A stretch of 64,000 bases of DNA from NCBI GenBank assembly GCA_019058445.1, contig JAHPZA010000003.1, forward strand, positions 32,001 through 96,000, given 5' to 3'. The notes under the pieces were generated by a model, which was not told the DNA's origin, searched no databases, and was given only the letters and a program-made list of their open reading frames with translations. Shown here piece after piece: positions 9,251-47,299 of the stretch. Numbering within the stretch: position 1 is the stretch's first letter; each line of letters begins with the position of its first letter. The DNA comes from Promethearchaeota archaeon. GTDB taxonomy: Archaea; Asgardarchaeota; Lokiarchaeia; Sigyniarchaeales; SOKP01. Position numbers and translations under genes: made by a program.

Positions 9251-10678
9251 TCACAAGTTTGAAATTAAAGATTTTATGCGCTCTGATGTTGAAATTAATT
9301 TTTTTTTGGCAAAACTTTCATTACTCGCCTCACTAATAACTCGAATTATTGGTTCTGTATTCGATGGATGAATTAAAGCAAACCAATCTTTTCCCTGGCC
9401 AAACCTCAAATCTTGGTCAATTTGATTTACAGTTTCGCCATTTGAGATTAAATCAGTTTTCAATTGGCTTATTAGTTTATCTAAATTTTTACCCTTTGTT
9501 TTGATATATTCTCTAAAAGCATAATATTTTGGAAGTTTCGAAACTAAACTCGAAATCTTTTTATTCGTTTCTACTAAAATTTCAACAATTTTAGAGGCAG
9601 CAAATATTCCGTCTCTTGTATTGTTAAATTGTGGGATCATTACCCCACCACAGGATCCTTCCCCTCCAAAAACTATGGATGAGGAATGTTCTTTTTTTAG
9701 TAAATTTTCCATTTTTTCAGCAAGGAATCGTTCACCGACAGGTGTTCGAATAACCTGTATGTTATATTTTTCTGCGAGCGCTTCAAATGCTAATGAGGAA
9801 GCAAGATTTGTTACAAAAACAACTTTTTTATTAGTTTGACTATATTGCTTAAATATAAAATCGCTTATTATAGCTAATCCTATATCTTCTGGATAACAAG
9901 TACCATCATCGCCAATAATTGCAATCCGATCAGCATCGCAATCATGTGCAAAACCAATGTTATATCCTTCATCTACAACCAAATTGATTAAATCTTTTAG
10001 ATTTTTCTCGATGGGTTCAATTTCTCGTGGAAATTTATTATTTTTAAAATCATTATTAATTAATTTTATGTTGCAACCAATTTCTTTTAAGATTCGTGGA
10101 GTTGCATTCTTTCCAGCTCCAGCTCCTGTGTCAAGAGCAACTTTTAAACTGTTTTTGCTCTTTATTCTTTCAAAATTAAGCATAGTTTTGAGGCCTTGAA
10201 TGTACTCATCAATAGCAGTTAGTTTTTCAGTAATCTGTGGTTGAGAAGGTTCCTTTTGAAAATAATGATCAATTATGTTTTTCTGAAGAATTTTAGAAAT
10301 TTCATTAACCTCAGAATTATTTAAAAATGTTTTTTTAGAAAGTAATTTTATTCCATTCCATTCAGGAGGATTATGTGAACCTGAGACGATAATTCCGCCG
10401 AGAGCATGAAGCTTATTTTTCATATATATAATAATAGGTGTAGGACAAATTCCCAGATTAATTATGTTACAATTAGCATAAGTCAATCCATCAATTATTG
10501 CTGTTTCAAGGCTCTGACCGCTTGGTCTAGTGTCTCTTCCAAGTACAATTGTTTTGTCATCACTCTTAAGCCATAATCCATATGCTAAAGCAATCCTCTT
10601 TACTATTTCAGCATTCAAATTTTTTCCTACAATTCCGCGGATTCCACTGATCGTAAATATTAATTCTTTTTCTCCCAT
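9251..10678 (-). CDS. Phosphohexomutase (phosphoglucosamine mutase / PMM-PGM family)
   Basis: ISGIRG, GRDTRPSG, the phospho-Ser motif SGSHNP, the metal loop DCDADR, GGEGSCG, PSNTEPIIRV. Confidence 0.9.
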   Translation of the reverse strand: MGEKELIFTISGIRGIVGKNLNAEIVKRIALAYGLWLKSDDKTIVLGRDTRPSGQSLETAIIDGLTYANCNIINLGICPTPIIIYMKNKLHALGGIIVSGSHNPPEWNGIKLLSKKTFLNNSEVNEISKILQKNIIDHYFQKEPSQPQITEKLTAIDEYIQGLKTMLNFERIKSKNSLKVALDTGAGAGKNATPRILKEIGCNIKLINNDFKNNKFPREIEPIEKNLKDLINLVVDEGYNIGFAHDCDADRIAIIGDDGTCYPEDIGLAIISDFIFKQYSQTNKKVVFVTNLASSLAFEALAEKYNIQVIRTPVGERFLAEKMENLLKKEHSSSIVFGGEGSCGGVMIPQFNNTRDGIFAASKIVEILVETNKKISSLVSKLPKYYAFREYIKTKGKNLDKLISQLKTDLISNGETVNQIDQDLRFGQGKDWFALIHPSNTEPIIRVISEASNESFAKKKLISTSERIKSLISNL

Positions 10679-10789
10679 ATTATTTTTAATTTAAACTCAC
10701 TCTGATATAAAAAGTAAATTTTGGCTGTTAAAAACTTTTAATTAAAATTTTGGTTATAAAAGGAACAATATTTTATTGAAATATCTCCA

Positions 10790-12322
10790 CTAAACACCTT
10801 TATCAGGAATACAAGTTTTAATAAATAAAGGAGTTGGGGGAGAATTATCAATACTGAAAACTTCAAGTTTAACGAGATAAAATGATATGCTTTCAAGAGA
10901 ATTGTCGTTCAACCAATTGATTATTCTTGTATGTTCATTTTTAGGATTCTCACAAATCCAGATTACTTTTTTCGCATTATAATAAGCCACAGATTTGAGA
11001 ATTTTTATTAGATTTGCTTGATCCGATTCACCATATTGCGTTTCAATTATAACCTTATTCTCATATTTATCTTGTGCTAAAATATCTATAGCTAAACCTT
11101 CAGAAACTGCATCTTTTTCGATTGGTATAAGTGAAATATCTAAAGTTTTATTTATTTGCTCCATGTTTTTTTCAAGCCAAGGATTAAAATCTTTCTTAAT
11201 ATCGGGCCAGATTTTATTAACCGGAATTACAGTATAATCCCCTAAATCCGGTTCCTTTAAAATGATCTTATCCTCTTTTTTGGTTTCGGTTGCGATGGTT
11301 TTATACTCCTCAATTTTCGAGATTTCGTCTGCTTCTAAAAACCTCTTTAGTAATTGAAGGGCGATCATCCTAAAAGCGTCGTTTATATTCTCACCGGTTA
11401 AAGCGGATGTTTCTATATAAGAGATTCCTAAATCTTCTGCTAATTTTTCTCCTTCTTCAGTTGATACAGCTCTTGTATCTCGCAAATCTGTTTTATTGGC
11501 ACATAATATTAAGATAATATTAGGTTTAGTCCCTTTCTTAATTTCATCATACCATTTTTTAATATTGTTAAAGGTATCTCTTCTTGTTATATCATAAACT
11601 AACAACCCGGCTTCGGCATTTACTAAATAGGAACTACGAATTCGTTCAAATTGAGGTTGGCCAGCTAAATCCCATATAGTAAATCGAACATTCGATTTCA
11701 GGCCCTCAAATTTACACTCTTTTTTTGTTATTGAAGTCCCTATAGTTGCCTTATAATCTGTCCGAAAGATTCCCTCTACAAATCTTTGAACCATACTTGT
11801 TTTACCTACAGCGCCATCTCCTCCAAGAATTAATTTATATACATAGTTAGACCCGGCAGCCCTGATTTTCTGCAGTGTGCTTTCTTTGCGTTGAATAGTT
11901 TGGCTTTTTTTGTCTGTATAAATTTTTGGGATGACAGGGGAAACTGGACGACCATCAAAAATCCGAGCAACTTTTTCTGCGGCTATGTATGCATATGGAA
12001 ATACTGGTTCTGACATTGCTAGCCCATCTAAAATGGTAACAAGAATATGATTTGGACCTGCTTCGCAAAAAATAAATCGATATCTCGCTGTATCAAAAGT
12101 TCCTAATCCAAAAGAGGTAATAGTAGAATCCTCTACTATTCGTTTTAAAATTAATCCCATTAATCCTCTAACAAAATCTTCAATGGCTTTTACTGCTGGA
12201 TTTAATAAGAAATTAATTATGGAACCATCTCTATTTAATACAAAGACGGCAACTAGATCCTTACCAACTTCTTGTCTATACCATTTTAATAAAGCTTCAA
12301 GTCGTTCCTTATCATATGACAT
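10790..12322 (-). CDS. Fusion protein: roadblock/longin-like domain + Rab-like small GTPase + PD-(D/E)xK (NucS/DUF4268-type) nuclease-like domain
   Basis: G1 GDGAVGKT, G2 YKATIG, G3 WDLAGQ, G4 NKTD, G5 ETSA. The N-terminal AVFVLNRDG resembles roadblock domains. The C-terminal IWP..KDFNPWL...IDILAQD...IIETQ...VIWI...WLN...FYLV...SPPTPLF resembles the N-terminal nuclease domain of DUF4268 proteins. Confidence 0.8.
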   Translation of the reverse strand: MSYDKERLEALLKWYRQEVGKDLVAVFVLNRDGSIINFLLNPAVKAIEDFVRGLMGLILKRIVEDSTITSFGLGTFDTARYRFIFCEAGPNHILVTILDGLAMSEPVFPYAYIAAEKVARIFDGRPVSPVIPKIYTDKKSQTIQRKESTLQKIRAAGSNYVYKLILGGDGAVGKTSMVQRFVEGIFRTDYKATIGTSITKKECKFEGLKSNVRFTIWDLAGQPQFERIRSSYLVNAEAGLLVYDITRRDTFNNIKKWYDEIKKGTKPNIILILCANKTDLRDTRAVSTEEGEKLAEDLGISYIETSALTGENINDAFRMIALQLLKRFLEADEISKIEEYKTIATETKKEDKIILKEPDLGDYTVIPVNKIWPDIKKDFNPWLEKNMEQINKTLDISLIPIEKDAVSEGLAIDILAQDKYENKVIIETQYGESDQANLIKILKSVAYYNAKKVIWICENPKNEHTRIINWLNDNSLESISFYLVKLEVFSIDNSPPTPLFIKTCIPDKGV

Positions 12323-13446: not shown

Positions 13447-14229
13447 ATAATCGATTGGTCTAAAGCCCAGTCAAACCCTAAATCAAAGCAAAAGGTATTA
13501 GGAAGAGATCTGTTGGATTTACGGGCTAAAATAAATGATTTAGAAAAGAATCTCGCTCAAAAAAGAAAAGAGATAAAGGACTTAAATGATAGAATAAGAT
13601 CTGCTGCAACTGACGTAGAACTTGGCTTAAGTAAGGTAGAAGAGAGGAAAAGAAAATTTGAAATTCGAGATAAAGCATTAAATGAGAAAATTACTTTTTT
13701 AGAAAAGACAATATTAAACAGGAATAAAGAAATAGAGATTCTTAAAGTGGATATAGAACAGAGAAATCGTCAAATTAGTAATCTTAAAAAATTAGAAGAT
13801 CAAATCGTAGAAAAAGACAAGGATATCAATCATTTAAAACAAATCATTGAACAAATGAATAGACAAAAAGATATTGATAAAAAAGATTTTACTCAACAAC
13901 TTTTAAACAAGGATTTAGAAGTTGAAAAGAGTAATGAAATCTTAAAACAAATCAAAAAACAACTGGAAACTAACGAAAACTTAATCCATCGAAAAGATGT
14001 AGAAATCGAGAAGCTTGAAATTGAATTTGAGAATAAAGCTAAACAAATAAACGAGATTACTCAAAAATTTAGGGATCTCGAATCGAAAATATCTGATGAG
14101 ATTCAATTATCTTCCAAACTCATCAAAAAAATTGAGAAGTTAATGCATCTTAAAGGATTTGTGAGCGACAAAGAACTTGAGGATCTAAAAGAAAAAATAG
14201 AAAAAAACCAATTCTCTATCAATTATTAA
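13447..14229 (+). CDS. Coiled-coil protein, paralog 1 of 3 (conserved IDW head, KGFxxD tail); probable ATA start
   Basis: The ORF track starts at TTG 13513. The frame is open back to 13444 and encodes the IDWSKAQSNPKSKQKVLGRDLLDLR head shared with the paralogs. GGTGG at 13436-13440 precedes ATA 13447. Confidence 0.75.
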   Translation: MIDWSKAQSNPKSKQKVLGRDLLDLRAKINDLEKNLAQKRKEIKDLNDRIRSAATDVELGLSKVEERKRKFEIRDKALNEKITFLEKTILNRNKEIEILKVDIEQRNRQISNLKKLEDQIVEKDKDINHLKQIIEQMNRQKDIDKKDFTQQLLNKDLEVEKSNEILKQIKKQLETNENLIHRKDVEIEKLEIEFENKAKQINEITQKFRDLESKISDEIQLSSKLIKKIEKLMHLKGFVSDKELEDLKEKIEKNQFSINY

Positions 14230-14385
14230 TCTATTGGGCACTGCTAAACTAAAATTATTGTATGCTTTTTCAGAGGAGAAAGAGGCGCAAGACTTCATTT
14301 TTTTGTGTGTAAAAATGTTAAGAAAGCGTAGTTAGAAGTAAAATTTTTATACGAACGTAAAAATTTCTAGTATATTAGAACAGAT

Positions 14386-14400
14386 ATATTTATAAAATTA
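14386..14400 (+). promoter_or_regulatory. TATA element ATATTTATAAAATTA upstream of coiled-coil paralog 2
   Basis: An identical 15-mer lies upstream of paralog 3 (15472-15486) at a similar distance (~70 bp) from the start. Confidence 0.55.
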
Positions 14401-14473
14401 ATGTGATAACCTAATAACAAGGGTTTATATTTATATTAATTTTTAGAGGAATACCTTAAGGAGATTATAGAGT

Positions 14474-15349
14474 ATGAGAATAGATTGGGAATTAGCAACT
14501 GTAAAGCCTAATAGAAGGCAAAAAATTGAAGGGAAATATCTTTTAGATCTAAGAACTAAAATACATGATTTAGAACATGAATTATCTCAAAGTAATAAAG
14601 AAATAGAACAAGCCAAAGAAAAGTTAACAATTACCGAACAAAGTTTTAACCAACTTACAGAAAAATTCATAGCTTCTGAGAAAAATATGGATGAGATTAT
14701 ATCAGATCTTAAAAAGAAATTGCGAATGGCTGAGACGAAATTTACGGAAAAAAATGACCGAGTTGATGTATCCTTGGACAGAATTACAGAGCTGGAACAA
14801 AAAATCTTAAATAAAGATAATGAATTAATGAGAGTAAAATTTAATTTAGAAAAGACAAATAAAGAAATCGAGAAATTGAGAAATCATTTCAGTCAAAATT
14901 CTACGGGGAAAGAAAGTCAAATTGAAGAACTGAGGTCTGATTTAGAAACAACCCGAAGAGAAGTTAATTTATTAAAACAGGAACTGGAGCAGTCTGTGTC
15001 GACAAAAAGTCTTGATGTAAACCGTTTTAAAACTGAATTAGAACAAAGGAACAACCAAATTGAACAACAAAACAAACAAATTGAAATCAATAAAAAGGAT
15101 TTAGATCACACAATTTTAACTAAGGATAGTATAATAGCTAAACTTGAAAAAGATCTTGAAGATAAAATTAATCAAATTGAAGACTTAAATAACAACATAA
15201 ATGAACTGTATAGTCAAATATCGAATGTTAAAGATACTGGATTAACCATCACAAATGTACCTAATGAAAGCAGTGTTTTGAAGAGAATTAAAGAATTAAT
15301 GGACCTGAAAGGTTTTGTCACTGATAAAGAGCTTGAACAGCTTATGTAA
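14474..15349 (+). CDS. Coiled-coil protein, paralog 2 of 3
   Basis: Head MRIDWELATVKPNRRQKIEGKYLLDLRTKIHDLE, a long E/K/Q-rich heptad rod, and tail IKELMDLKGFVTDKELEQL. Confidence 0.85.
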   Translation: MRIDWELATVKPNRRQKIEGKYLLDLRTKIHDLEHELSQSNKEIEQAKEKLTITEQSFNQLTEKFIASEKNMDEIISDLKKKLRMAETKFTEKNDRVDVSLDRITELEQKILNKDNELMRVKFNLEKTNKEIEKLRNHFSQNSTGKESQIEELRSDLETTRREVNLLKQELEQSVSTKSLDVNRFKTELEQRNNQIEQQNKQIEINKKDLDHTILTKDSIIAKLEKDLEDKINQIEDLNNNINELYSQISNVKDTGLTITNVPNESSVLKRIKELMDLKGFVTDKELEQLM

Positions 15350-15471
15350 GTTCCACTTAACCTTTTTTTCTAAATTCAGAAACTTTAAACATTTAAACTA
15401 GTTCTATACACAAATCAAACTTTGTTTTTATGAAATGGAAAGTTTCTTAAAATGTTAGGAAATTTAGAGAA

Positions 15472-15486
15472 ATATTTATAAAATTA
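15472..15486 (+). promoter_or_regulatory. TATA element ATATTTATAAAATTA upstream of coiled-coil paralog 3
   Basis: Identical to 14386-14400. Confidence 0.55.
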
Positions 15487-15554
15487 GTAATAGATATACT
15501 CATTATCAACAAATATGGATTTTTAAAAGTCTGAGAATTCTTAAGTGATATATT

Positions 15555-16262
15555 TTGAGTATTGATTGGTCGAAATTAGAGTCCAAACCTGAAATGAAAA
15601 TAAAGGTTGATGGGCAAATTTTATTAGATCTTAAAGCCAAAATTCACGATTTAGAACTGGAATTGATCCAACATAAAGAAGATCTAGAAACAACAAAAGA
15701 AATATTAAGCGAAAAAGAAACCTTAATAAAAAGTTTAACCGATAAATTATCATCTACGGAAAATGAGCTGAATGACTCTGAGAAAAAAATTCAGAGTGAT
15801 GCGGAAGAAATAAACTCATTAACAAACCAAAATGCTGAATTGACGGATCAGTTGGTAAAAATTAAAGAAGAATTATCTGATAAAATGAAGGAATTAGAAA
15901 CTCTAAAGAATGAAGTTGTAAGAGATGTTACTCAGAGAGACAATGAAGTAGAAAATCTAAAAAACATTACTATCCAAAAAAATAGAGAGATAGAAAGATT
16001 CAAAATCGATTTGGAGCAAAAAAATAAAGAGATTGAAGATTTAAGAGAGATTATCACACAAAAGGAGAAAGAAATTTCTAATCTTAATGGAGAATTAGAG
16101 ACAAAATTAAAGCTAATCGATGAGTTCAAAAATAAGATTAAATTGTTGGAAGTAACTATTTCAGAGGGGCAATCATCTCAATATATTGTTGATGAAATCA
16201 AAAGTATTATGCAGCAAAAAGGCTTTTTGTCTGACCGAGAATTTGAAAACCTAATTAAATAA
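15555..16262 (+). CDS. Coiled-coil protein, paralog 3 of 3
   Basis: Head MSIDWSKLESKPEMKIKVDGQILLDLKAKIHDLE, a heptad rod, and tail IKSIMQQKGFLSDREFENL. Confidence 0.85.
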   Translation: MSIDWSKLESKPEMKIKVDGQILLDLKAKIHDLELELIQHKEDLETTKEILSEKETLIKSLTDKLSSTENELNDSEKKIQSDAEEINSLTNQNAELTDQLVKIKEELSDKMKELETLKNEVVRDVTQRDNEVENLKNITIQKNREIERFKIDLEQKNKEIEDLREIITQKEKEISNLNGELETKLKLIDEFKNKIKLLEVTISEGQSSQYIVDEIKSIMQQKGFLSDREFENLIK

Positions 16263-18177: not shown

Positions 18178-20334
18178 ATGGTAAAAATAAAATCTATAGC
18201 ATTAGACACAGGTGGAACGATGACAGATAGTTTTATCATCGACGAGATGGGCACTTTTACTGTAGGAAAAGCACAAACTACGCCATACAACGAATCTGAA
18301 GGAATACTCAATTCGATAGCGGATTCTCTACAATATCGAGGGATTACTCTATCCGAATCAGGTGAATCTGTAGAAGCTCTGGTTTATTCGGGTACTGCTA
18401 TGTTAAATCGGCTTTTAGAACGAGAAGGGAACAGCAATATCGGCGTCATTGTAAATGCTGGATTTGAGGATCTCCTGAGATTAGGAAGAGCTCTTCAATG
18501 TTGGATTTGGCTGGATTATGGGGGTCGCTTGCATGCGAGAGAACACGAACATCCTGAACCGCTTATACCAAGGAAGCAAATTAAGGGTGTCAGAGGCAGA
18601 ATTAACTTCTGGGGAGAAGAACTAATACCACTATATAATGAAGATGTAAAAAAAGCGGTACGCGAACTGCTTGATAAGGGAGTAGAAAGTATTTGTGTCT
18701 GTTTGCTCTGTTCATACATGAATGCTAGTCATGAAATGCAAGTTGAAAGAATTGCCAAAGAAGTAATGAAGGAAATGGGCAAAGAAATTCCAATTATTTT
18801 GTCAAGCGAGCATAATCCAGTAAGAGGTGAAACACCACGTTTGAATGCTCTCATTATAGAACAATATGCTGCTGAACCTTCGAGGAAGCAATTAATTGAA
18901 ATTGCGGAACGAATGAAAGAAAAAGGAGTGCCGGCACCTCTTAGAATTTTAACAACATATGGAGGGACTATTTCTCCTTATCACAAAACCCTTATCCCTA
19001 CCATGGTTTCAGGTCCGATCGGTGGAATGATAGGTACCCAATTTATTGCTGAAAAATATGGCATAAAAAACTTAGTATCTTCAGATGTAGGGGGCACTAG
19101 TTTCGACGTTGGGCTCGTAATGGAGCGTTATGTTCCAGCAAAATGGGAAAGTTCTCTTGGAAAATTTATATTAAATATCCCTATGATTGCTTTAGATTCA
19201 ATAGGCGCTGGTACTGGAATGTATGTAAGATATAATGAAATCTCTGATAGATTAGAATTTGGTCCTGAAAGTGCTGGATACAAAATTGGAGTATGTAATG
19301 AGCAATCTGGAGTAGAGACGGTAACCATGACTGATTGCAGTATTATTTTAGGCTACCTTAATCCGGATTATTTTCTTGGAGGGAAGATAAAACTAAATAA
19401 AAATCGAGCTTTTAAATATATCGAAGAACAAATTGCTGATCCTTTGAAGGCAGATCCTTATAGCACTGCTAGAGGTGCTCTTGACCTCATAGAAATTAAT
19501 ATGAAGAACCACCTCAATGGAATGATTCAAGGTCTTGGATTCAGACCAGAAAATTATACTTTAATTTCTTTTGGAGGAGGAGGTCCCCTTCATGTTGCTG
19601 GATACGCCCAAGATTTAAAATTTCAAGACATTTTAATACCGGAATGGGCGCCCGCTTTCTCTGCTTTCGGTTGTGCATGTGCAGATCACTCATATCGGCA
19701 TGAAAAATCTGTTGATTTAGTTATGCCTCCTGATGGCGGAATGGATGGATTTGTAGCATCCATGATGAGCTCCACATGGACTGATTTAAAAATCGAAATT
19801 TCTAAAGAGTTTGAGAAAGAGGGAAGAGATGTTAGTGAGATGGAATTCAGACCTTCCCTGCGAATGCAGTATTTCGGAATGTTTGACGACTTGGAAGTAG
19901 AATCACCCGCAGAACAATTAATTAGTCAATATTCTACGGAAAAAGATCGCTATATTTCTGAAGATTTGACAGAAATCACCAGAAGATATAATAAACTATT
20001 TGAGGAAATATTCCGCAGAGGAACAACTAGCCCGGAACTCGGATATCATATAACCAAAGCAATAGGGACAGGTATTGTACCTGTACCAAAACCTAAATTA
20101 CCAGAACAACAGCTTACTAGTGAAAAGCCTGATGATGAAGCTACCAAGGGAAATAGAGATATTTTCTGGGGAAAAGGCTGGCATGAAGCCTCACTCTGGG
20201 AAATGAGTTTACTAAAGGCAGGGAATATCATTGATGGCCCAGCAGTGATTGAAGCTCCAGCAACTACTTTAGTGGTTCCACCAGGATATCGTGTTAAACT
20301 TGATAAGCATAGAATTTTCCATATGGAGGTGTAA
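18178..20334 (+). CDS. acxA: Acetone carboxylase beta subunit (hydantoinase A/oxoprolinase family)
   Basis: DTGGTMTD, VGKAQTTP, SGTAMLNRL, SGPIGG, SDVGGTSFD, FGGGGPLH, AFSAFGCACAD; first gene of a three-gene operon. Confidence 0.85.
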   Translation: MVKIKSIALDTGGTMTDSFIIDEMGTFTVGKAQTTPYNESEGILNSIADSLQYRGITLSESGESVEALVYSGTAMLNRLLEREGNSNIGVIVNAGFEDLLRLGRALQCWIWLDYGGRLHAREHEHPEPLIPRKQIKGVRGRINFWGEELIPLYNEDVKKAVRELLDKGVESICVCLLCSYMNASHEMQVERIAKEVMKEMGKEIPIILSSEHNPVRGETPRLNALIIEQYAAEPSRKQLIEIAERMKEKGVPAPLRILTTYGGTISPYHKTLIPTMVSGPIGGMIGTQFIAEKYGIKNLVSSDVGGTSFDVGLVMERYVPAKWESSLGKFILNIPMIALDSIGAGTGMYVRYNEISDRLEFGPESAGYKIGVCNEQSGVETVTMTDCSIILGYLNPDYFLGGKIKLNKNRAFKYIEEQIADPLKADPYSTARGALDLIEINMKNHLNGMIQGLGFRPENYTLISFGGGGPLHVAGYAQDLKFQDILIPEWAPAFSAFGCACADHSYRHEKSVDLVMPPDGGMDGFVASMMSSTWTDLKIEISKEFEKEGRDVSEMEFRPSLRMQYFGMFDDLEVESPAEQLISQYSTEKDRYISEDLTEITRRYNKLFEEIFRRGTTSPELGYHITKAIGTGIVPVPKPKLPEQQLTSEKPDDEATKGNRDIFWGKGWHEASLWEMSLLKAGNIIDGPAVIEAPATTLVVPPGYRVKLDKHRIFHMEV

Positions 20335-20337
20335 TAA

Positions 20338-22557
20338 ATGACGAAAAAACCAATAGGATGGAATGGTAAGTCTTTAATTGAAATGTTGGAAGAAAGTGAG
20401 AAACTTTTTGAAGAAACAAAGTATTATTATGGATTAGACAGACTTAGCTTAAAGGAACAAGATCCATTTAATTATGAACGTTGTTACGCCAGTTTAAGGG
20501 GTGCGATCGTATCGGCCAGAGAGACCGCATTACATGTTGCAGCCTCGCCAATAGTTAAAGAAATCGGGGAACTCTGTTTTGGATTATACACCCCAGAGGG
20601 AGACTCTATAGTCGTTTCAACCGGAATATTAGTCCATATTCACACCATGAGCGAAGGAGTTAAATTTATGATACGGGAAAACTATGAAGAGGATGTCGGA
20701 ATTAATCCTGGTGATATTTTTTTAAACAATGATCCTGAATGTGGGAATGTCCATACTACAGATGTGCAAACCCTAATCCCCTTATTCTGGGAAGATGAGC
20801 TTATAGGTTGGGCTGGTGGGGTTACCCATCAAATTGATACTGGTGGTATAACCCCGGGTCATGACTTGATTTCGGCCGTTCAACGATTTGACGATGGTGT
20901 CTATTATACTTGTCGCAAAATCGGTTCAAATGATAAGATCTGGAAAGACCACTTAATAAATGCTAGAAGATCCGTAAGAACTCCAATGTATTGGGAGTTA
21001 GACGAAAAATGTAGACTTGCAGGAAATTTGATGATTAGAGACGCGGTTCATGACTTTATTAAACGTGAAGGAATTGATTACTACAAAAAGTTTGTAAGGG
21101 AAGCAATAGAAGAAGGCAGAAGAATTCTCATTGAACGTGTAAAAGAACGCTTGATTCCTGGAAGGTATAGAGCCGCATCTTTTATGGATGTAGCTATGAA
21201 AAATGAGGCGTGGCAACCTATCGCTAAAATTGATAAAATTTCCAACCAACCGTTAGAAATAATTGTTAAAGAGAATGGCGGATTTTCACTTTCTTTTGAG
21301 GGGGCAAGTGGTCCCGGACCGAATTGTATGAATTGTGCGAAAGGTGCAATGGAAGGAGGACAATGGGTTCTTCTGACCCAAATTTTGATTTATGGCGATA
21401 AAGTTAATGATGGAGCATATTTTGCTGTAGAAAAAGAATATCCTCCTGGAACATGGGCCAATCCCGGTGATCCCTATCTTTCATACCAAGCGCCATGGGG
21501 GAACTTGATTCCAGCTTACACGGGAATGATGAAATGCATCTCTTATGGTTTATTTTCCCGGGGATATAGGGAAGAGGTTGTCCCAGGTTACGGATTTACT
21601 GGAGATGCGATTCAAGGTGGAGGGATCTATTCTTCTGGACCCCTTGAAGGTCAAAGGTGGTCTTTATCTACATTTGAGATAAGTGGTCAGGGTCTAGGAG
21701 CAAGTGCCGTAAAAGATGGCCTTGATCACGGATATGCGATGTGGAACCCAGAATCTGACCTTGGAGATGTAGAAACATGGGAATTATTTCAAGGAGGGAT
21801 ACCCTATTTAGCTAGGAAGATGAAACCAAACAATGCAGGGCACGGTAAATATCGCGGAGGCGCCAATTATGCTGGAATTGCAATGATTGCTTATTCCAGA
21901 GGTGTAGAATTTTTTGGAGCTCGAGATGGTTTATGTTTTCATGGAACTGGTGGTATGCACGGAGGTTATCCCAACCCAACAGGATATCGTCTTTATGCTA
22001 AAAATACAAATATGCAAGAACTTATTCAAAATCGAAAAGAATATCCTCTCGGTGACCCCGATCCTAGCAATGGTGAATTTGAGCGATTATTGACAGGAGA
22101 TATAACTAGAAAACCCAATTGCTCAACCTTCCCGATAACTTTAGACGATTATGATGTGGTCCATTATGCACTATCTGGAGGTCCTGGATATGGTGATCCA
22201 TTAGAGAGAAAATTAGAAAGCATTAGAAAAGATCTTAATGATGAAATCTATACGAAAGACTTTGTTTATAATATCTATGGTACAGTCGCCACTTATGATA
22301 AGAATAAAGAAGAATGGACTATAGATGAGAAAGCATCCGAAGAACGTCGAGAATCAATTAAGAGGGAAAGAATGGAAAAATCGATGACTTTTGAAGAGTT
22401 CTGGGAATATGAAAGGAAGAAAATAACTGAAGATAAGCTCTATGAGGCCGTTAAACGCATGTATTCGGAAAGCATTAAATTTTCTACCAAATATTGGGCG
22501 AAAGAGTTCCGGGAATTTTGGAAGCTTCCCGAAGATTTCGAGATGGAGGTGAAGTAA
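20338..22557 (+). CDS. acxB: Acetone carboxylase alpha subunit (hydantoinase B family)
   Basis: ARETALHVAASPIV, GELCF, STGILVHIHTM, metal-ligand segments GNVHTTD and GGVTHQID, WNPESDLGDVETWE, GGPGYGDPLER. Confidence 0.88.
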   Translation: MTKKPIGWNGKSLIEMLEESEKLFEETKYYYGLDRLSLKEQDPFNYERCYASLRGAIVSARETALHVAASPIVKEIGELCFGLYTPEGDSIVVSTGILVHIHTMSEGVKFMIRENYEEDVGINPGDIFLNNDPECGNVHTTDVQTLIPLFWEDELIGWAGGVTHQIDTGGITPGHDLISAVQRFDDGVYYTCRKIGSNDKIWKDHLINARRSVRTPMYWELDEKCRLAGNLMIRDAVHDFIKREGIDYYKKFVREAIEEGRRILIERVKERLIPGRYRAASFMDVAMKNEAWQPIAKIDKISNQPLEIIVKENGGFSLSFEGASGPGPNCMNCAKGAMEGGQWVLLTQILIYGDKVNDGAYFAVEKEYPPGTWANPGDPYLSYQAPWGNLIPAYTGMMKCISYGLFSRGYREEVVPGYGFTGDAIQGGGIYSSGPLEGQRWSLSTFEISGQGLGASAVKDGLDHGYAMWNPESDLGDVETWELFQGGIPYLARKMKPNNAGHGKYRGGANYAGIAMIAYSRGVEFFGARDGLCFHGTGGMHGGYPNPTGYRLYAKNTNMQELIQNRKEYPLGDPDPSNGEFERLLTGDITRKPNCSTFPITLDDYDVVHYALSGGPGYGDPLERKLESIRKDLNDEIYTKDFVYNIYGTVATYDKNKEEWTIDEKASEERRESIKRERMEKSMTFEEFWEYERKKITEDKLYEAVKRMYSESIKFSTKYWAKEFREFWKLPEDFEMEVK

Positions 22558-23055
22558 ATGGTTCAACATGATAAAAAAACATTAGAAAGAATGATAGACG
22601 GGGATTTACCTTGGGATGAGTTAAAGCCAATCATTAGTGGAAGAAAGGATCCTAACAGGTTTGATATTATTCTGGAAATTTTGCAGGAACGGGTTTCATG
22701 GAATGAAAAAATACTTCTGCCTCTTCATGAACATTTATATGTGGTATCAAAAGAAGGTCAAAGAATTGTTAAATGCGATTGCGGATATGAGTTTGGAGAT
22801 TATCGAGAAAACTGGAAACATAAATGTCGAGTTAGGGTAAGAGATACTGAAGAATCTATTGGAGAATTGTATCCGAAATATATGGGGAGCGATCCCGACT
22901 GGGAAGAACTTAGAGAATATATTTGTCCGGGATGTCTTTCGTTGTTAGATGTTGAGGCAGTTCCACCGGGATATCCCACCATTTTTAATTTTCTGCCTGA
23001 TATTGATGCATTCTATGAGAAATGGTTAGGAAGGAAAGCACCTGATAAAAAATAA
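22558..23055 (+). CDS. acxC: Acetone carboxylase gamma subunit
   Basis: KDPNRF, ILLPLHEHLYV, the zinc motif VKCDCG...REYICPGC, VEAVPPGYP, PDIDAFY..WLG. Confidence 0.9.
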   Translation: MVQHDKKTLERMIDGDLPWDELKPIISGRKDPNRFDIILEILQERVSWNEKILLPLHEHLYVVSKEGQRIVKCDCGYEFGDYRENWKHKCRVRVRDTEESIGELYPKYMGSDPDWEELREYICPGCLSLLDVEAVPPGYPTIFNFLPDIDAFYEKWLGRKAPDKK

Positions 23056-31622: not shown

Positions 31623-32495
31623 ATGTGTCAATGGTGTATGAAACACGGCGCAGGTAAAAAATGGTATCTTAATTCAAAAAATTATTTTGCCGATCAGATT
31701 GCTCCCGAAAATGAAATGAGAGAATATTTAGAAGAACAATGGAAGAATATGGAAAATTTATTCATTCGAAAGATCAAGGGATTTAGTTCAGTTGGCTTAG
31801 GATATAAAATGAAGATGCCTATTATTGGACGGGTACTCCGGGCTGCTGCTGAAGGGATGATTCACAGTGAGAAACAACACAGAAATCCCGTAAGAGCTGA
31901 TGGTCATTTTGGGCAAGCAATTCCGTTAGAAGAAGCAAAATTAATTATGTCTGAATTGGCAGCAGAACCAATCATTGAAAATTATTGCTTATGCCGATAC
32001 ATGCAGCGCGGCACTAAAGAGTGCTGTTGCATTAATTTCGGGGTATTATCTGAAATAATTGAGAAAATTCCTCGATATATTCCAAAGGATCGCGTAGTGA
32101 GGATAGATCGGGAAACGGCTATGGAACGTTTGGAAGAGCATAATAAAAAAGGCTATATTGCCTCTGTATGGTTTCAACCAGTACCATATATCAATGCAAT
32201 ATGTTCTTGTGAAAGCCCTGAATGTGGAGGGCTCCGTTTGAGAACTAGTTTTGACTTAAATGCATTTTATAAAGCAGAATATATCATTCAATTAGATCAA
32301 GATAAATGTCAGGGATGTAAACAATGTGTGTCCATGTGCCAATTTGGTGCATTGCGCTATATACCCTCTCAAAAAAGAGTTATCGTGGATTACGATAAAT
32401 GCTTCGGATGTGGAGTTTGCAGACATGCGTGTAATAATGATGCGCTGAAACTAATCCCACGAGAAGAATTCCCTGGATGGGATGGAACATATTAG
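31623..32495 (+). CDS. Cys-rich 4Fe-4S dicluster (ferredoxin-domain) protein
   Basis: N-terminal MCQWC, CLCR, ICSC..PEC, and two C-terminal CxxCxxCxxxC motifs. Confidence 0.85.
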   Translation: MCQWCMKHGAGKKWYLNSKNYFADQIAPENEMREYLEEQWKNMENLFIRKIKGFSSVGLGYKMKMPIIGRVLRAAAEGMIHSEKQHRNPVRADGHFGQAIPLEEAKLIMSELAAEPIIENYCLCRYMQRGTKECCCINFGVLSEIIEKIPRYIPKDRVVRIDRETAMERLEEHNKKGYIASVWFQPVPYINAICSCESPECGGLRLRTSFDLNAFYKAEYIIQLDQDKCQGCKQCVSMCQFGALRYIPSQKRVIVDYDKCFGCGVCRHACNNDALKLIPREEFPGWDGTY

Positions 32496-46333: not shown

Positions 46334-47299
46334 TTATATCCCTAAATTTGATGTTAAACACATAAAAAGTTCATCTAAACCCTCTCCTGTCAAAGCGGAA
46401 GTTTCAAAAAATTGAAAGTTATATCGGTCAGCAAATTTGTAGGCATTGCTTCTGATTTCTTCTCTATTCTCTACTTTATCAATTTTATTCCCTACAATTA
46501 TGTAAAGGATCGAAGAATTTTTGATGAAATGGCGGGCTTCTTCAATCCACTCGTTAATCATTCCTAATGTTTCTTGTTTAGAATAATCGAATACAATTAG
46601 AACTGCCTTTGAGTGGTTATAGAAATGCCTACGTATCTTTGCAAAACTTTTTTTGCCTCCTAAGTCAAACAGTGAAAATGTTATTTTCATATCTTTCAAA
46701 ATTTGAAGTTCTTTTTCAATTATTGAAAGACCTATAGTAGGTTTATATTGCTCAATAAATTCACCATTAACAAACATGTTTGCTATGGCACTTTTGCCCA
46801 CATTATCTGGTCCAATTAGTACAATCTTATTTATTGAATTTTTACTATTAGAATGGTTGTTGGATTCTAGTTCTACGTTTCCGCCATTAACAAGATTAGG
46901 AAGTTTCGTCGAAATTTTTCGATCATTTAGAATTTGTGATGCTTTTTCTGCCACAATGTATGAATACGGGATAAATTTGTCAATATCAGAGTAAGCATCT
47001 GCTACTAATACAAATAATGCTCTAGTTGGTCCAACATTTCCCAGTTCTAAATAGAACAAACGATAGTCATTAGTATCAAATGTACCACTGCCATAAGATG
47101 TATCGGCGAATCTTTTAATTTTATTAAGAGCCCCTTCAAGGATGCTCATAATCGCTCCAATAATCTCTTCATTAAAATTTTTTACTGATTGGCGAGCAAT
47201 AATTAATCCATCCAAATCTACAATTAACGTAGCAATTAATTCATCAACTTTTTTCAAAAAATTGGCTAACAATTCTTCTAATAGCGTGACGCGCAACAT
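46334..47299 (-). CDS. Roadblock (MglB-like) domain fused to a Rab-like small GTPase, inside the che cluster
   Basis: N-terminal LIATLIVDLDGLIIA...IIGAIMS. GTPase motifs GPDNVGKS, YKPTIG, FDLGGK, NKID, ETSA. Confidence 0.85.
   Translation of the reverse strand: MLRVTLLEELLANFLKKVDELIATLIVDLDGLIIARQSVKNFNEEIIGAIMSILEGALNKIKRFADTSYGSGTFDTNDYRLFYLELGNVGPTRALFVLVADAYSDIDKFIPYSYIVAEKASQILNDRKISTKLPNLVNGGNVELESNNHSNSKNSINKIVLIGPDNVGKSAIANMFVNGEFIEQYKPTIGLSIIEKELQILKDMKITFSLFDLGGKKSFAKIRRHFYNHSKAVLIVFDYSKQETLGMINEWIEEARHFIKNSSILYIIVGNKIDKVENREEIRSNAYKFADRYNFQFFETSALTGEGLDELFMCLTSNLGI

Follow-up and report, generated by a model that had tools for sequence, protein, structure and literature searches.

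The 64,000-nucleotide stretch analysed here (the window; positions 32,001 to 96,000 of contig JAHPZA010000003.1, assembly GCA_019058445.1 of a Promethearchaeota archaeon of the Lokiarchaeia) contains a gene for a 510-residue protein in which a Roadblock domain, a Rab-like small GTPase and a C-terminal domain derived from a PD-(D/E)xK nuclease follow one another in a single chain (Table 1). The explanation that we favour, with moderate confidence when taken as a whole, is that the C-terminal domain (C-domain) is a catalytically dead nuclease fold reused by the GTPase switch. Its parts differ in strength. Loss of the ancestral nuclease activity is likely, judging from the residues that have disappeared from the fused sequences. 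The role of the domain as an adaptor, as opposed to a relic or something unforeseen, is a tentative assignment that we place somewhat short of an even chance. Both the inactivity and the adaptor role are what we infer from the comparisons presented below.

Homology and fold of the C-terminal domain

A first-pass annotation, made by a model from the nucleotide sequence alone, had likened the last ~145 amino acids (aa) of the protein to the NucS-like N-terminal domain of DUF4268 proteins, and this likeness was borne out by profile, sequence and structure comparisons. The PADLOC profile PDLC04914 (PDC-S11) matched aa 362-508 with an E-value of 1.2e-41 over profile positions 7-151 of 314, and stand-alone members of the family fit the same profile end to end (1e-95 to 1e-122). 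An exhaustive phmmer search with aa 350-510 returned 2569 proteins at E<=1e-3, 1283 of them at E<=1e-10; nearly all were ~310 aa long and aligned over their first ~150 residues, with the best stand-alone matches at 4e-33 to 1e-30. PF14088 (DUF4268) was present in the C-terminal half of the sampled stand-alone members, and it had no match in the window protein. The word-indexed protein search with the C-domain alone retrieved only fragments of the same fusion, and phmmer of the domain against PDB sequences gave nothing meaningful. The Pfam and NCBIfam matches returned for the C-domain alone (Pox_A22 at 0.0023, blaTMB and MauD) were sub-threshold chance matches and were rejected.

The AlphaFold2 (AF2) model of the C-domain (ma361ab852d7f, built from a 55-sequence alignment) had a predicted local distance difference test (pLDDT) score of 92.8. 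Its top structural match was the catalytic domain of Pyrococcus abyssi NucS (2vld_B, residues 126-233), with a Z score of 11.4 and a root-mean-square deviation (rmsd) of 2.2 over 101 aligned residues. Almost all of the 30 matches that followed NucS in the all-against-all structural search had the restriction-endonuclease fold, and the top Foldseek matches were again NucS/EndoMS (1e-4), so that the question raised in the first-pass annotation, whether this is a restriction-endonuclease fold, was answered in favour of that fold, with NucS as the best match. McrC was found among the fold matches only weakly (Z 5.3), and the Rpb5 N-domain was also present. The isolated C-domain is acidic (net charge -7, isoelectric point 4.8), as are the stand-alone nuclease domains, and net charge does not separate the fused from the stand-alone domains (median -10 vs -11). 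When docking of the Rab domain (aa 155-340) onto the C-domain was predicted without controls, the scores were 0.00 and 0.00, which speaks neither for nor against a contact between the two.

The parent family includes genuine defence nucleases. PDC-S11, since renamed Madara, protects Escherichia coli ECOR34 against T-even phages with modified cytosines; it is composed of an N-terminal NucS-like PD-(D/E)XK nuclease and a C-terminal EVE-like domain, and its D63A substitution abolishes defence (bioRxiv 10.64898/2026.09.05.749240). MdgA, a DUF4268-containing nuclease recovered by metagenomic selection, degrades T4 DNA and acts far less on unmodified T4-GT7 DNA, and with the substitution E77A it loses its cleavage of DNA as well as its defence activity (Cell Host Microbe 2025, PMC12366544). 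The modal spacing between the D and the E of the stand-alone proteins is 14, and two representatives carry D and E exactly at positions 63 and 77. Judged by spacing and position only, this is consistent with Madara D63 and MdgA E77 corresponding to D413 and E427 of the window protein. Madara-type domains also occur in other architectures: P0011 (648 aa), P0021 (549 aa), P0026 (736 aa) and P0016 (520 aa) have either two matched stretches, which are tandem duplications of the module, or the domain at an internal position (~186-342), and no GTPase was found in this set by the Pfam scan.

Decay of the active site in the fused clade

Conservation was measured in 154 stand-alone representatives and compared with 17 fused sequences. 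In the stand-alone proteins the motif D-x13-E-N-Q-x5-D-H-x-H-L-G-(K/Q)-x-x-x-Y is near-invariant: the D and the Q are present in 153/154, the E and the second H in 154/154, the first H in 146/154, the G in 150/154 and the Y in 99%. The motifs quoted in the first-pass annotation are all present: the window protein keeps IDILAQD (with D413) and IIETQ (with E427 and Q429), and it has DQANLIK where the family has D-H-x-H-L-G-K. The family's H, H, G and Y are replaced by Q435, N437, I439 and S444. Altogether the family residues H435, H437, G439, Y444, E375, E404 and N428, each 94-100% conserved in the stand-alone representatives, have been lost from the window protein.

The losses extend across the whole fused clade. 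In 7 of the 17 fused sequences the position of E427 holds T, Q, I, M or Y, and in 4 D413 is missing or replaced; the first His is absent from most of them and the second from 10, and E375 and Y444 are absent from all 17. Not one fused relative has the full complement of residues that the stand-alone proteins keep near-invariant. The losses differ between subclades, and the stand-alone sisters of the clade keep the full motif. Thirteen of the 27 columns conserved at >=90% in the stand-alone proteins were lost in the fusions, mostly polar ones (the exceptions being A450 and I491). The kept columns belong mainly to the hydrophobic core (W372, F379, W382, L383, I426, L438, W455, W470 and L471), together with N386, N472, P506 and, partly, D413 and Q429; W372, W382, W455 and L471-N472 are invariant in the fused clade. 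A retained core with lost polar motif residues reads as the usual signature of a pseudo-enzyme. Since all 17 fused proteins lack a near-invariant residue, mostly from among the polar motif positions, the comparative data favour the second of two suggestions made in the first-pass annotation, namely an inactivated nuclease fold reused as an effector. There are precedents for such reuse: ERCC1, EME1 and FAAP24 have a restriction-endonuclease-like fold without catalytic residues, which is used for protein or nucleic-acid contacts. The kept fold of these proteins, and of the Rpb5 N-domain, is like that of the C-domain, but they belong to unrelated lineages and serve as an analogy only.

The first suggestion of that annotation, a GTP-switched nuclease comparable with McrBC, is not supported, given the active-site losses across the fused clade. 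In such a protein the C-domain would still cut and the Rab domain would gate the cutting, making it a Ras-family analogue of McrBC or of another nucleoside triphosphate-dependent type IV system. This could be argued from the retention of D413, E427 and Q429 in the window's subclade, from the four conserved DUF4268 positions kept by the long relatives described below, and from a parent family of real modification-dependent nucleases (10.64898/2026.09.05.749240, PMC12366544). We nevertheless consider it improbable: the window protein has suffered the losses listed above, it is without the sensing domain, and no defence-island context was seen. Moreover, the catalytic E or D is itself gone from other fused members, and therefore cleavage cannot be the shared function of the clade.

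Several observations weigh against an inactive, adaptor-like domain. D413, E427 and Q429, which the window's subclade keeps, make up the minimal metal-binding core of a PD-(D/E)xK site, and residual cleavage or metal-dependent binding may persist there. The catalytic roles that we assign to the lost H-x-H, E375 and Y444 are deduced from their invariance alone and, for Y444, also from what we take to be a likeness to the RecB-type QxxxY motif. No column was found to be newly fixed in the fused clade in comparison with its stand-alone sisters, and therefore nothing points positively to a new function. The acidity of the C-domain speaks against tight binding of DNA by the isolated domain and lends the proposed adaptor role no direct support.

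Distribution and origin of the fusion

We surveyed 71 genomes of the window's own family, representing 13 genera, with a profile of the C-domain. The domain was found in 20/71 genomes and 7/13 genera, and with it the three-domain architecture for which the first-pass annotation had proposed a search in Asgard genomes. The forms encountered were 17 open frames of 643-710 aa, one frame cut by the start of its contig, two short ones (in the window genome and in G319) and one stand-alone gene of 314 aa. Asgard genomes outside the family contained only stand-alone genes of ~290-340 aa or contig-end fragments. The word-indexed search retrieved relatives of 513-681 aa with the same domain order, one of which is annotated at NCBI as a Rab family GTPase of a Candidatus Hermodarchaeota archaeon. 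Candidatus Hermodarchaeota is likewise the NCBI name of the closest relative with a label.

The usual form of the fusion is the ancestral long one of ~680 aa with the DUF4268 domain, represented by P0005, P0013 and 676-682-aa open reading frames (ORFs) at nine loci (L002, L003, L006, L007, L009-L012 and L020), all with the same domain order. P0005 matches the whole PDC-S11 profile (6-311 of 314), and PF14088 was detected in both P0005 and P0013. The four well-conserved DUF4268 positions are all kept in 12/12 long fusions, and therefore the sensor half of the long form may still work.

A tree built from 171 nuclease domains grouped all 17 fused sequences in one clade (support 0.876), whose sisters (support 0.989) were two stand-alone proteins, P0010 and L004. 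L004 is the 314-aa stand-alone gene mentioned above and comes from a genome of the same family, G270, which also has a fusion (L020). A Roadblock-Rab gene of ~340 aa is present in 71/71 family genomes, and its product shares 53-60% identity with the window protein over aa 1-150 of the latter. These comparisons would most simply be explained by duplication of the core Roadblock-Rab gene, followed by a single fusion of one copy to a Madara-type gene already resident. The window's own genome has a 339-aa Roadblock-Rab paralogue (G000:C1:128697-129713, outside the window), 60% identical over aa 2-336, which is probably the conserved parent of the fused gene.

The coexistence of a fusion and of the closest stand-alone sister in G270 would also fit a pseudo-nuclease that heterodimerises with a live stand-alone Madara-type paralogue, as in ERCC1-XPF and EME1-MUS81, and thereby brings a nuclease under GTPase control. 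We regard this as very improbable, because the window genome (92.6% complete) encodes the domain only once and contains no PF14088, and a second copy occurs in only 1/20 domain-bearing genomes of the family, that of G270.

Roadblock-Rab proteins of ~400 aa are also found in many genomes. In the window's own genome the Roadblock-Rab query finds 59 loci at E<=1e-5, a large share of which are multidomain frames 580-990 aa long, and 26 loci match Robl_LC7; the small-GTPase and Roadblock complement of this genome is very large even for an Asgard archaeon. A second fusion of a Roadblock domain with a small GTPase lies in the window itself, at 46334-47299 on the minus strand (321 aa; Robl_LC7 at 3.6e-5, Roadblock-Rab query at 3e-39).

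Loss of the DUF4268 tail

The window copy is a derived, truncated ortholog of the long form. The gene order GNAT, fusion, phosphohexomutase is common to the window, L033 (GCA_048885945.1) and L034, and the long form of the genus-mate G258 lies in the same neighbourhood, with a phosphohexomutase gene, the fusion, a coiled-coil gene and ORFs of 724, 738 and 164 aa. The sizes of these last ORFs (acetone-carboxylase-sized) match those of the 718-, 739- and 165-aa ORFs at 18178-23055 of the window. In L034 the DUF4268 tail is present over its whole length, with 72-74% identity to the tail of the long relative P0003, but a single in-frame stop directly behind the nuclease domain cuts it off and a single frameshift disrupts it. 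Either the tail was freshly pseudogenised or the disablement is an assembly error; L034 documents an intermediate step towards the truncated form of the window. In the window and L033 the tail is gone, leaving 111 bp and about 100 bp, respectively, before the next gene. No DUF4268 remnant was found in the spacer of the window, where tblastn with the P0003 and P0005 tails gave chance-level matches and all three frames are closed, and a search of the whole genome (92.6% complete) for PF14088 found none.

These features of L034 are at L034:2790-3339 (contig ena:ERZ27251131:k141_243081). The C-domain of the L034 protein is 82% identical to that of the window, and a 102-aa ORF (P0157) was split off by the gene caller. 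The fusion of the window adjoins coiled-coil 'head-rod-tail' paralogues at 13513-16262 (plus strand), with the GNAT gene lying between. In G258 a 233-aa protein with coiled-coil Pfam matches only (L041:10954-11655) is encoded directly upstream of the long-form fusion; therefore the fusion and the coiled-coil family are neighbours in two genomes of the genus.

Such stepwise erosion, from the intact long form (P0003) through a stop and a frameshift (L034) to clean deletion (window, L033), could mean that the working unit is the Roadblock-Rab part only and that the nuclease-derived part is a functionless relic, decaying towards loss after its DUF4268 tail. Two further observations would fit: the C-domain evolves 2-5x faster than the Roadblock and Rab domains, and the 340-aa Roadblock-Rab form is universal in the family (71/71 genomes), whereas the fusion is patchy (20/71). 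However, the C-domain is under purifying selection, with a ratio of nonsynonymous to synonymous substitution rates (dN/dS) of 0.14-0.25 in three pairwise comparisons, far below neutrality. The ORF is intact in 17/17 fused sequences from 7 genera, and the residues of the structural core are invariant in a domain modelled with high pLDDT. We therefore consider a relic unlikely.

The Roadblock and Rab-like domains

The first-pass annotation had called the N-terminal domain a Roadblock. By sequence this could not be reproduced, since Pfam Robl_LC7 (PF03259) had no match on aa 1-150 at E<=1 and the window gene was not among the 26 PF03259 loci of its own genome. A search of PDB sequences with a profile of the N-domain also gave nothing meaningful, and the protein atlas search yielded weak leads (0.84-0.87). 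By fold the assignment held. The AF2 model of the domain (m76bb7ec82fb0, from 14 relatives; pLDDT 73.6) has the element order alpha-beta-beta-alpha-beta-beta-beta-alpha, and its best match was MglB (3t1r_A; Z 15.6, rmsd 3.0, 124 residues aligned), with Roadblock3 of Prometheoarchaeum (9jue_D) at Z 15.2. Roadblock domains of Loki Rag-like GTPases and LAMTOR/Ragulator subunits were further fold matches. Foldseek returned 106 matches at E<=1e-3 (E 2e-7), and 49/50 among the matches listed had the Roadblock fold. The predicted model thus confirms the N-terminal domain as a Roadblock at the level of fold. It is the most conserved and slowest-evolving domain of the protein (dN/dS 0.04-0.05). In the linker between Roadblock and GTPase the motif S-P-V-I-P-K (aa 128-133, nucleotides 11924-11941), kept in 14/14 fused proteins, may be a docking peptide or a hinge.

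The canonical Rab-like domain of the first-pass annotation was upheld: Ras, at 1.7e-50, was the sole Pfam domain above threshold in the window protein, NCBIfam adding only the generic small-GTPase domain (TIGR00231). The motifs G1-G5 are intact (P-loop G168-S176, switch I T193, D218-x-x-G221-Q222, N276-K277-x-D279 and S306-A307), and all of their residues, the switch II Gln included, are invariant across 14 full-length fused proteins. The best PDB sequence match of the GTPase was the Thorarchaeota Rab 7ezb (2.3e-49), followed by the eukaryotic Rab11, Rab6, Rab5, Rab14 and Rab1, which points to Rab as the nearest of the Ras-superfamily branches. Its dN/dS was 0.07-0.10.

Gene structure and soundness of the assembly

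The annotated ORF with its three domains stood up to re-examination, and 13 homologues have N-termini in register with its ATG start. At its C-terminus the protein reads -IPDKGV, with no prenylatable Cys motif of the eukaryotic Rab kind. No defence genes were seen beside the fusion in the 6 loci inspected.

A misassembly, in which a GTPase gene had wrongly been joined to a nuclease gene, was a doubt voiced in the first-pass annotation. We found nothing in favour of it, and the fusion is genuine. In one sediment run the gene lies within a 24-kb contig of depth 24 that shows 0 differences, and 3 further samples of the same study yielded short identical contigs that bridge 11052-11306 (the Rab/nuclease junction) and 10637-10912 (the stop). 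Since the same architecture recurs in 20 independent genomes and several metagenome contigs, and independent contigs span the junction, misassembly is excluded, and we give a chimera a negligible chance.

Table 1. Features of the fused gene and of the adjoining spacer, in window coordinates
Feature	Residues	Position	Strand	Remarks
Whole gene, Roadblock / Rab-like GTPase / degenerate PD-(D/E)xK		10790..12322	(-)	510 aa; stop codon 10790-10792
MglB-type Roadblock domain	1-126	11945..12322	(-)	AF2 model and fold matches
Linker with S-P-V-I-P-K (aa 128-133) and R145/K146	127-160	11843..11944	(-)	Motif invariant in 14 fused proteins
Rab-like small GTPase	163-324	11351..11836	(-)	Pfam Ras, E 1.7e-50; TIGR00231
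End of GTPase helix and charged linker	325-361	11240..11350	(-)	Poorly conserved; aa identity 0.63-0.77 between close relatives
NucS-like PD-(D/E)xK domain	362-508	10799..11239	(-)	Homologous to the N-terminal half of PDC-S11/Madara-type DUF4268 nucleases
Retained core D413...E427-T-Q429 (D-x13-E-x-Q)	413-429	11036..11086	(-)	Family N428 replaced by T
Degenerate motif D-Q-A-N-L-I-K-I-L-K-S	434-444	10991..11023	(-)	Family D-H-x-H-L-G-(K/Q)-x-L-T-Y
Spacer before the phosphohexomutase gene		10679..10789	(-)	111 bp; relatives encode a ~170-aa DUF4268 domain here

Comparison with known systems

With Madara/PDC-S11 the window protein shares the homologous nuclease domain and its D-x13-E-x-Q core, and the longer relatives match the whole profile, DUF4268 included. 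It differs in the position of the domain behind a Roadblock-Rab unit, in the absence of the sensing domain DUF4268 (EVE-like), in the loss of H-x-H, G, Y444, E375 and E404, and in its location outside any defence island. MdgA has a like architecture, the link to it being drawn from the DUF4268 domain and the D63/E77 spacing alone. NucS/EndoMS (P. abyssi 2vld, T. kodakarensis 5gke) provides the best structural match, but at 15-16% identity and over residues 126-233 only; the window protein is without the N-terminal DNA-binding and dimerisation domain of NucS, has Q429 at the place of the catalytic K, and is not a mismatch-repair enzyme.

Small GTPases fused to Roadblock or longin domains are known in Asgard archaea (Tran et al. 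2024, PMC10933270; LokiRag 8yl2 and 9m28), and the word 'nuclease' is absent from the text of PMC10933270. Those proteins likewise have a Roadblock covalently joined to a small GTPase, and the Roadblock fold described here is close to the solved Asgard ones. However, they combine Rag/Arf-like GTPases with Roadblock or longin, whereas the window protein has a Rab-like GTPase and a third, nuclease-derived domain. In Thermus and Myxococcus, MglB, the best fold match of the N-domain, is a Roadblock-type GTPase-activating protein (GAP) for the Ras-like GTPase MglA. By analogy, this likeness suggests an in-cis regulator, although MglB acts on MglA as a dimer and is not part of the same chain, and the window GTPase is Rab-like with a catalytic Gln. 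McrBC resembles the fusion in concept, since it pairs a GTPase with a modification-dependent restriction nuclease of the PD-(D/E)xK kind, but its GTPase, McrB, is of the AAA+ class, and its nuclease, McrC, is active and forms a chain of its own, whereas the window protein combines a Ras-family GTPase with a degenerate nuclease site.

In the literature searched, the coverage of which was incomplete, no description was found of a Rab-like GTPase with a Madara/PDC-S11 module or of its conversion to a pseudo-nuclease. These two points would be what is new here; multidomain Asgard small GTPases and the Madara/PDC-S11 nuclease itself were already known.

Proposed mechanism and significance

The dead-nuclease explanation would run as follows. 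A lineage-specific duplicate of the ubiquitous ~340-aa Roadblock-Rab gene would have fused once to a resident PDC-S11/Madara-type single-gene defence nuclease, which consisted of the NucS-like PD-(D/E)xK domain and DUF4268, an EVE-like, modification-sensing domain. After fusion the active site decayed with the fold kept, and in the lineage of the window the DUF4268 domain was then lost too. The protein would work as a Rab-like GTP/GDP switch, with the MglB-like Roadblock as a built-in regulator and dimerisation platform, possibly GAP-like in cis by analogy with MglB and Ragulator/Rag. The C-domain would be a non-catalytic pseudo-nuclease adaptor, either for self-association, as in restriction-fold dimers, or for partner binding, and its binding of nucleic acid would be at most weak. 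Stable DNA binding by the truncated protein is unlikely because the C-domain is acidic, and because in this family the recognition of DNA has been proposed to lie in the DUF4268 half.

A more specific idea concerns the ancestral form of ~680 aa, which could be an Asgard innate-immune sensor built on a disarmed type IV restriction module. Its EVE-like DUF4268 domain would still recognise modified viral nucleic acid and the dead nuclease would clamp or dimerise on it, with a signal passed to the Rab-like GTPase instead of a cut; the window version would be a sensor-less derivative, constitutive or regulated by a partner. We consider this quite unlikely and offer it as speculation.

Asgard archaea have dozens of small GTPases, and an effector or input is known for almost none of them. 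The window fusion has such a domain, effector or input, as part of its own chain, and the source of that domain is traceable. A single-gene antiviral nuclease was captured once and, as we read it, disarmed; selection maintained it in seven genera before it was trimmed further, and nature would thus offer a clean case of exaptation, in which a defence enzyme became part of a GTPase switch. Together with their stand-alone sister, the long and short forms constitute a tractable set of constructs for asking what a primordial Rab-like protein couples to. If the long form does sense modified DNA, antiviral sensing would be linked to Rab-type signalling in the closest prokaryotic relatives of eukaryotes.

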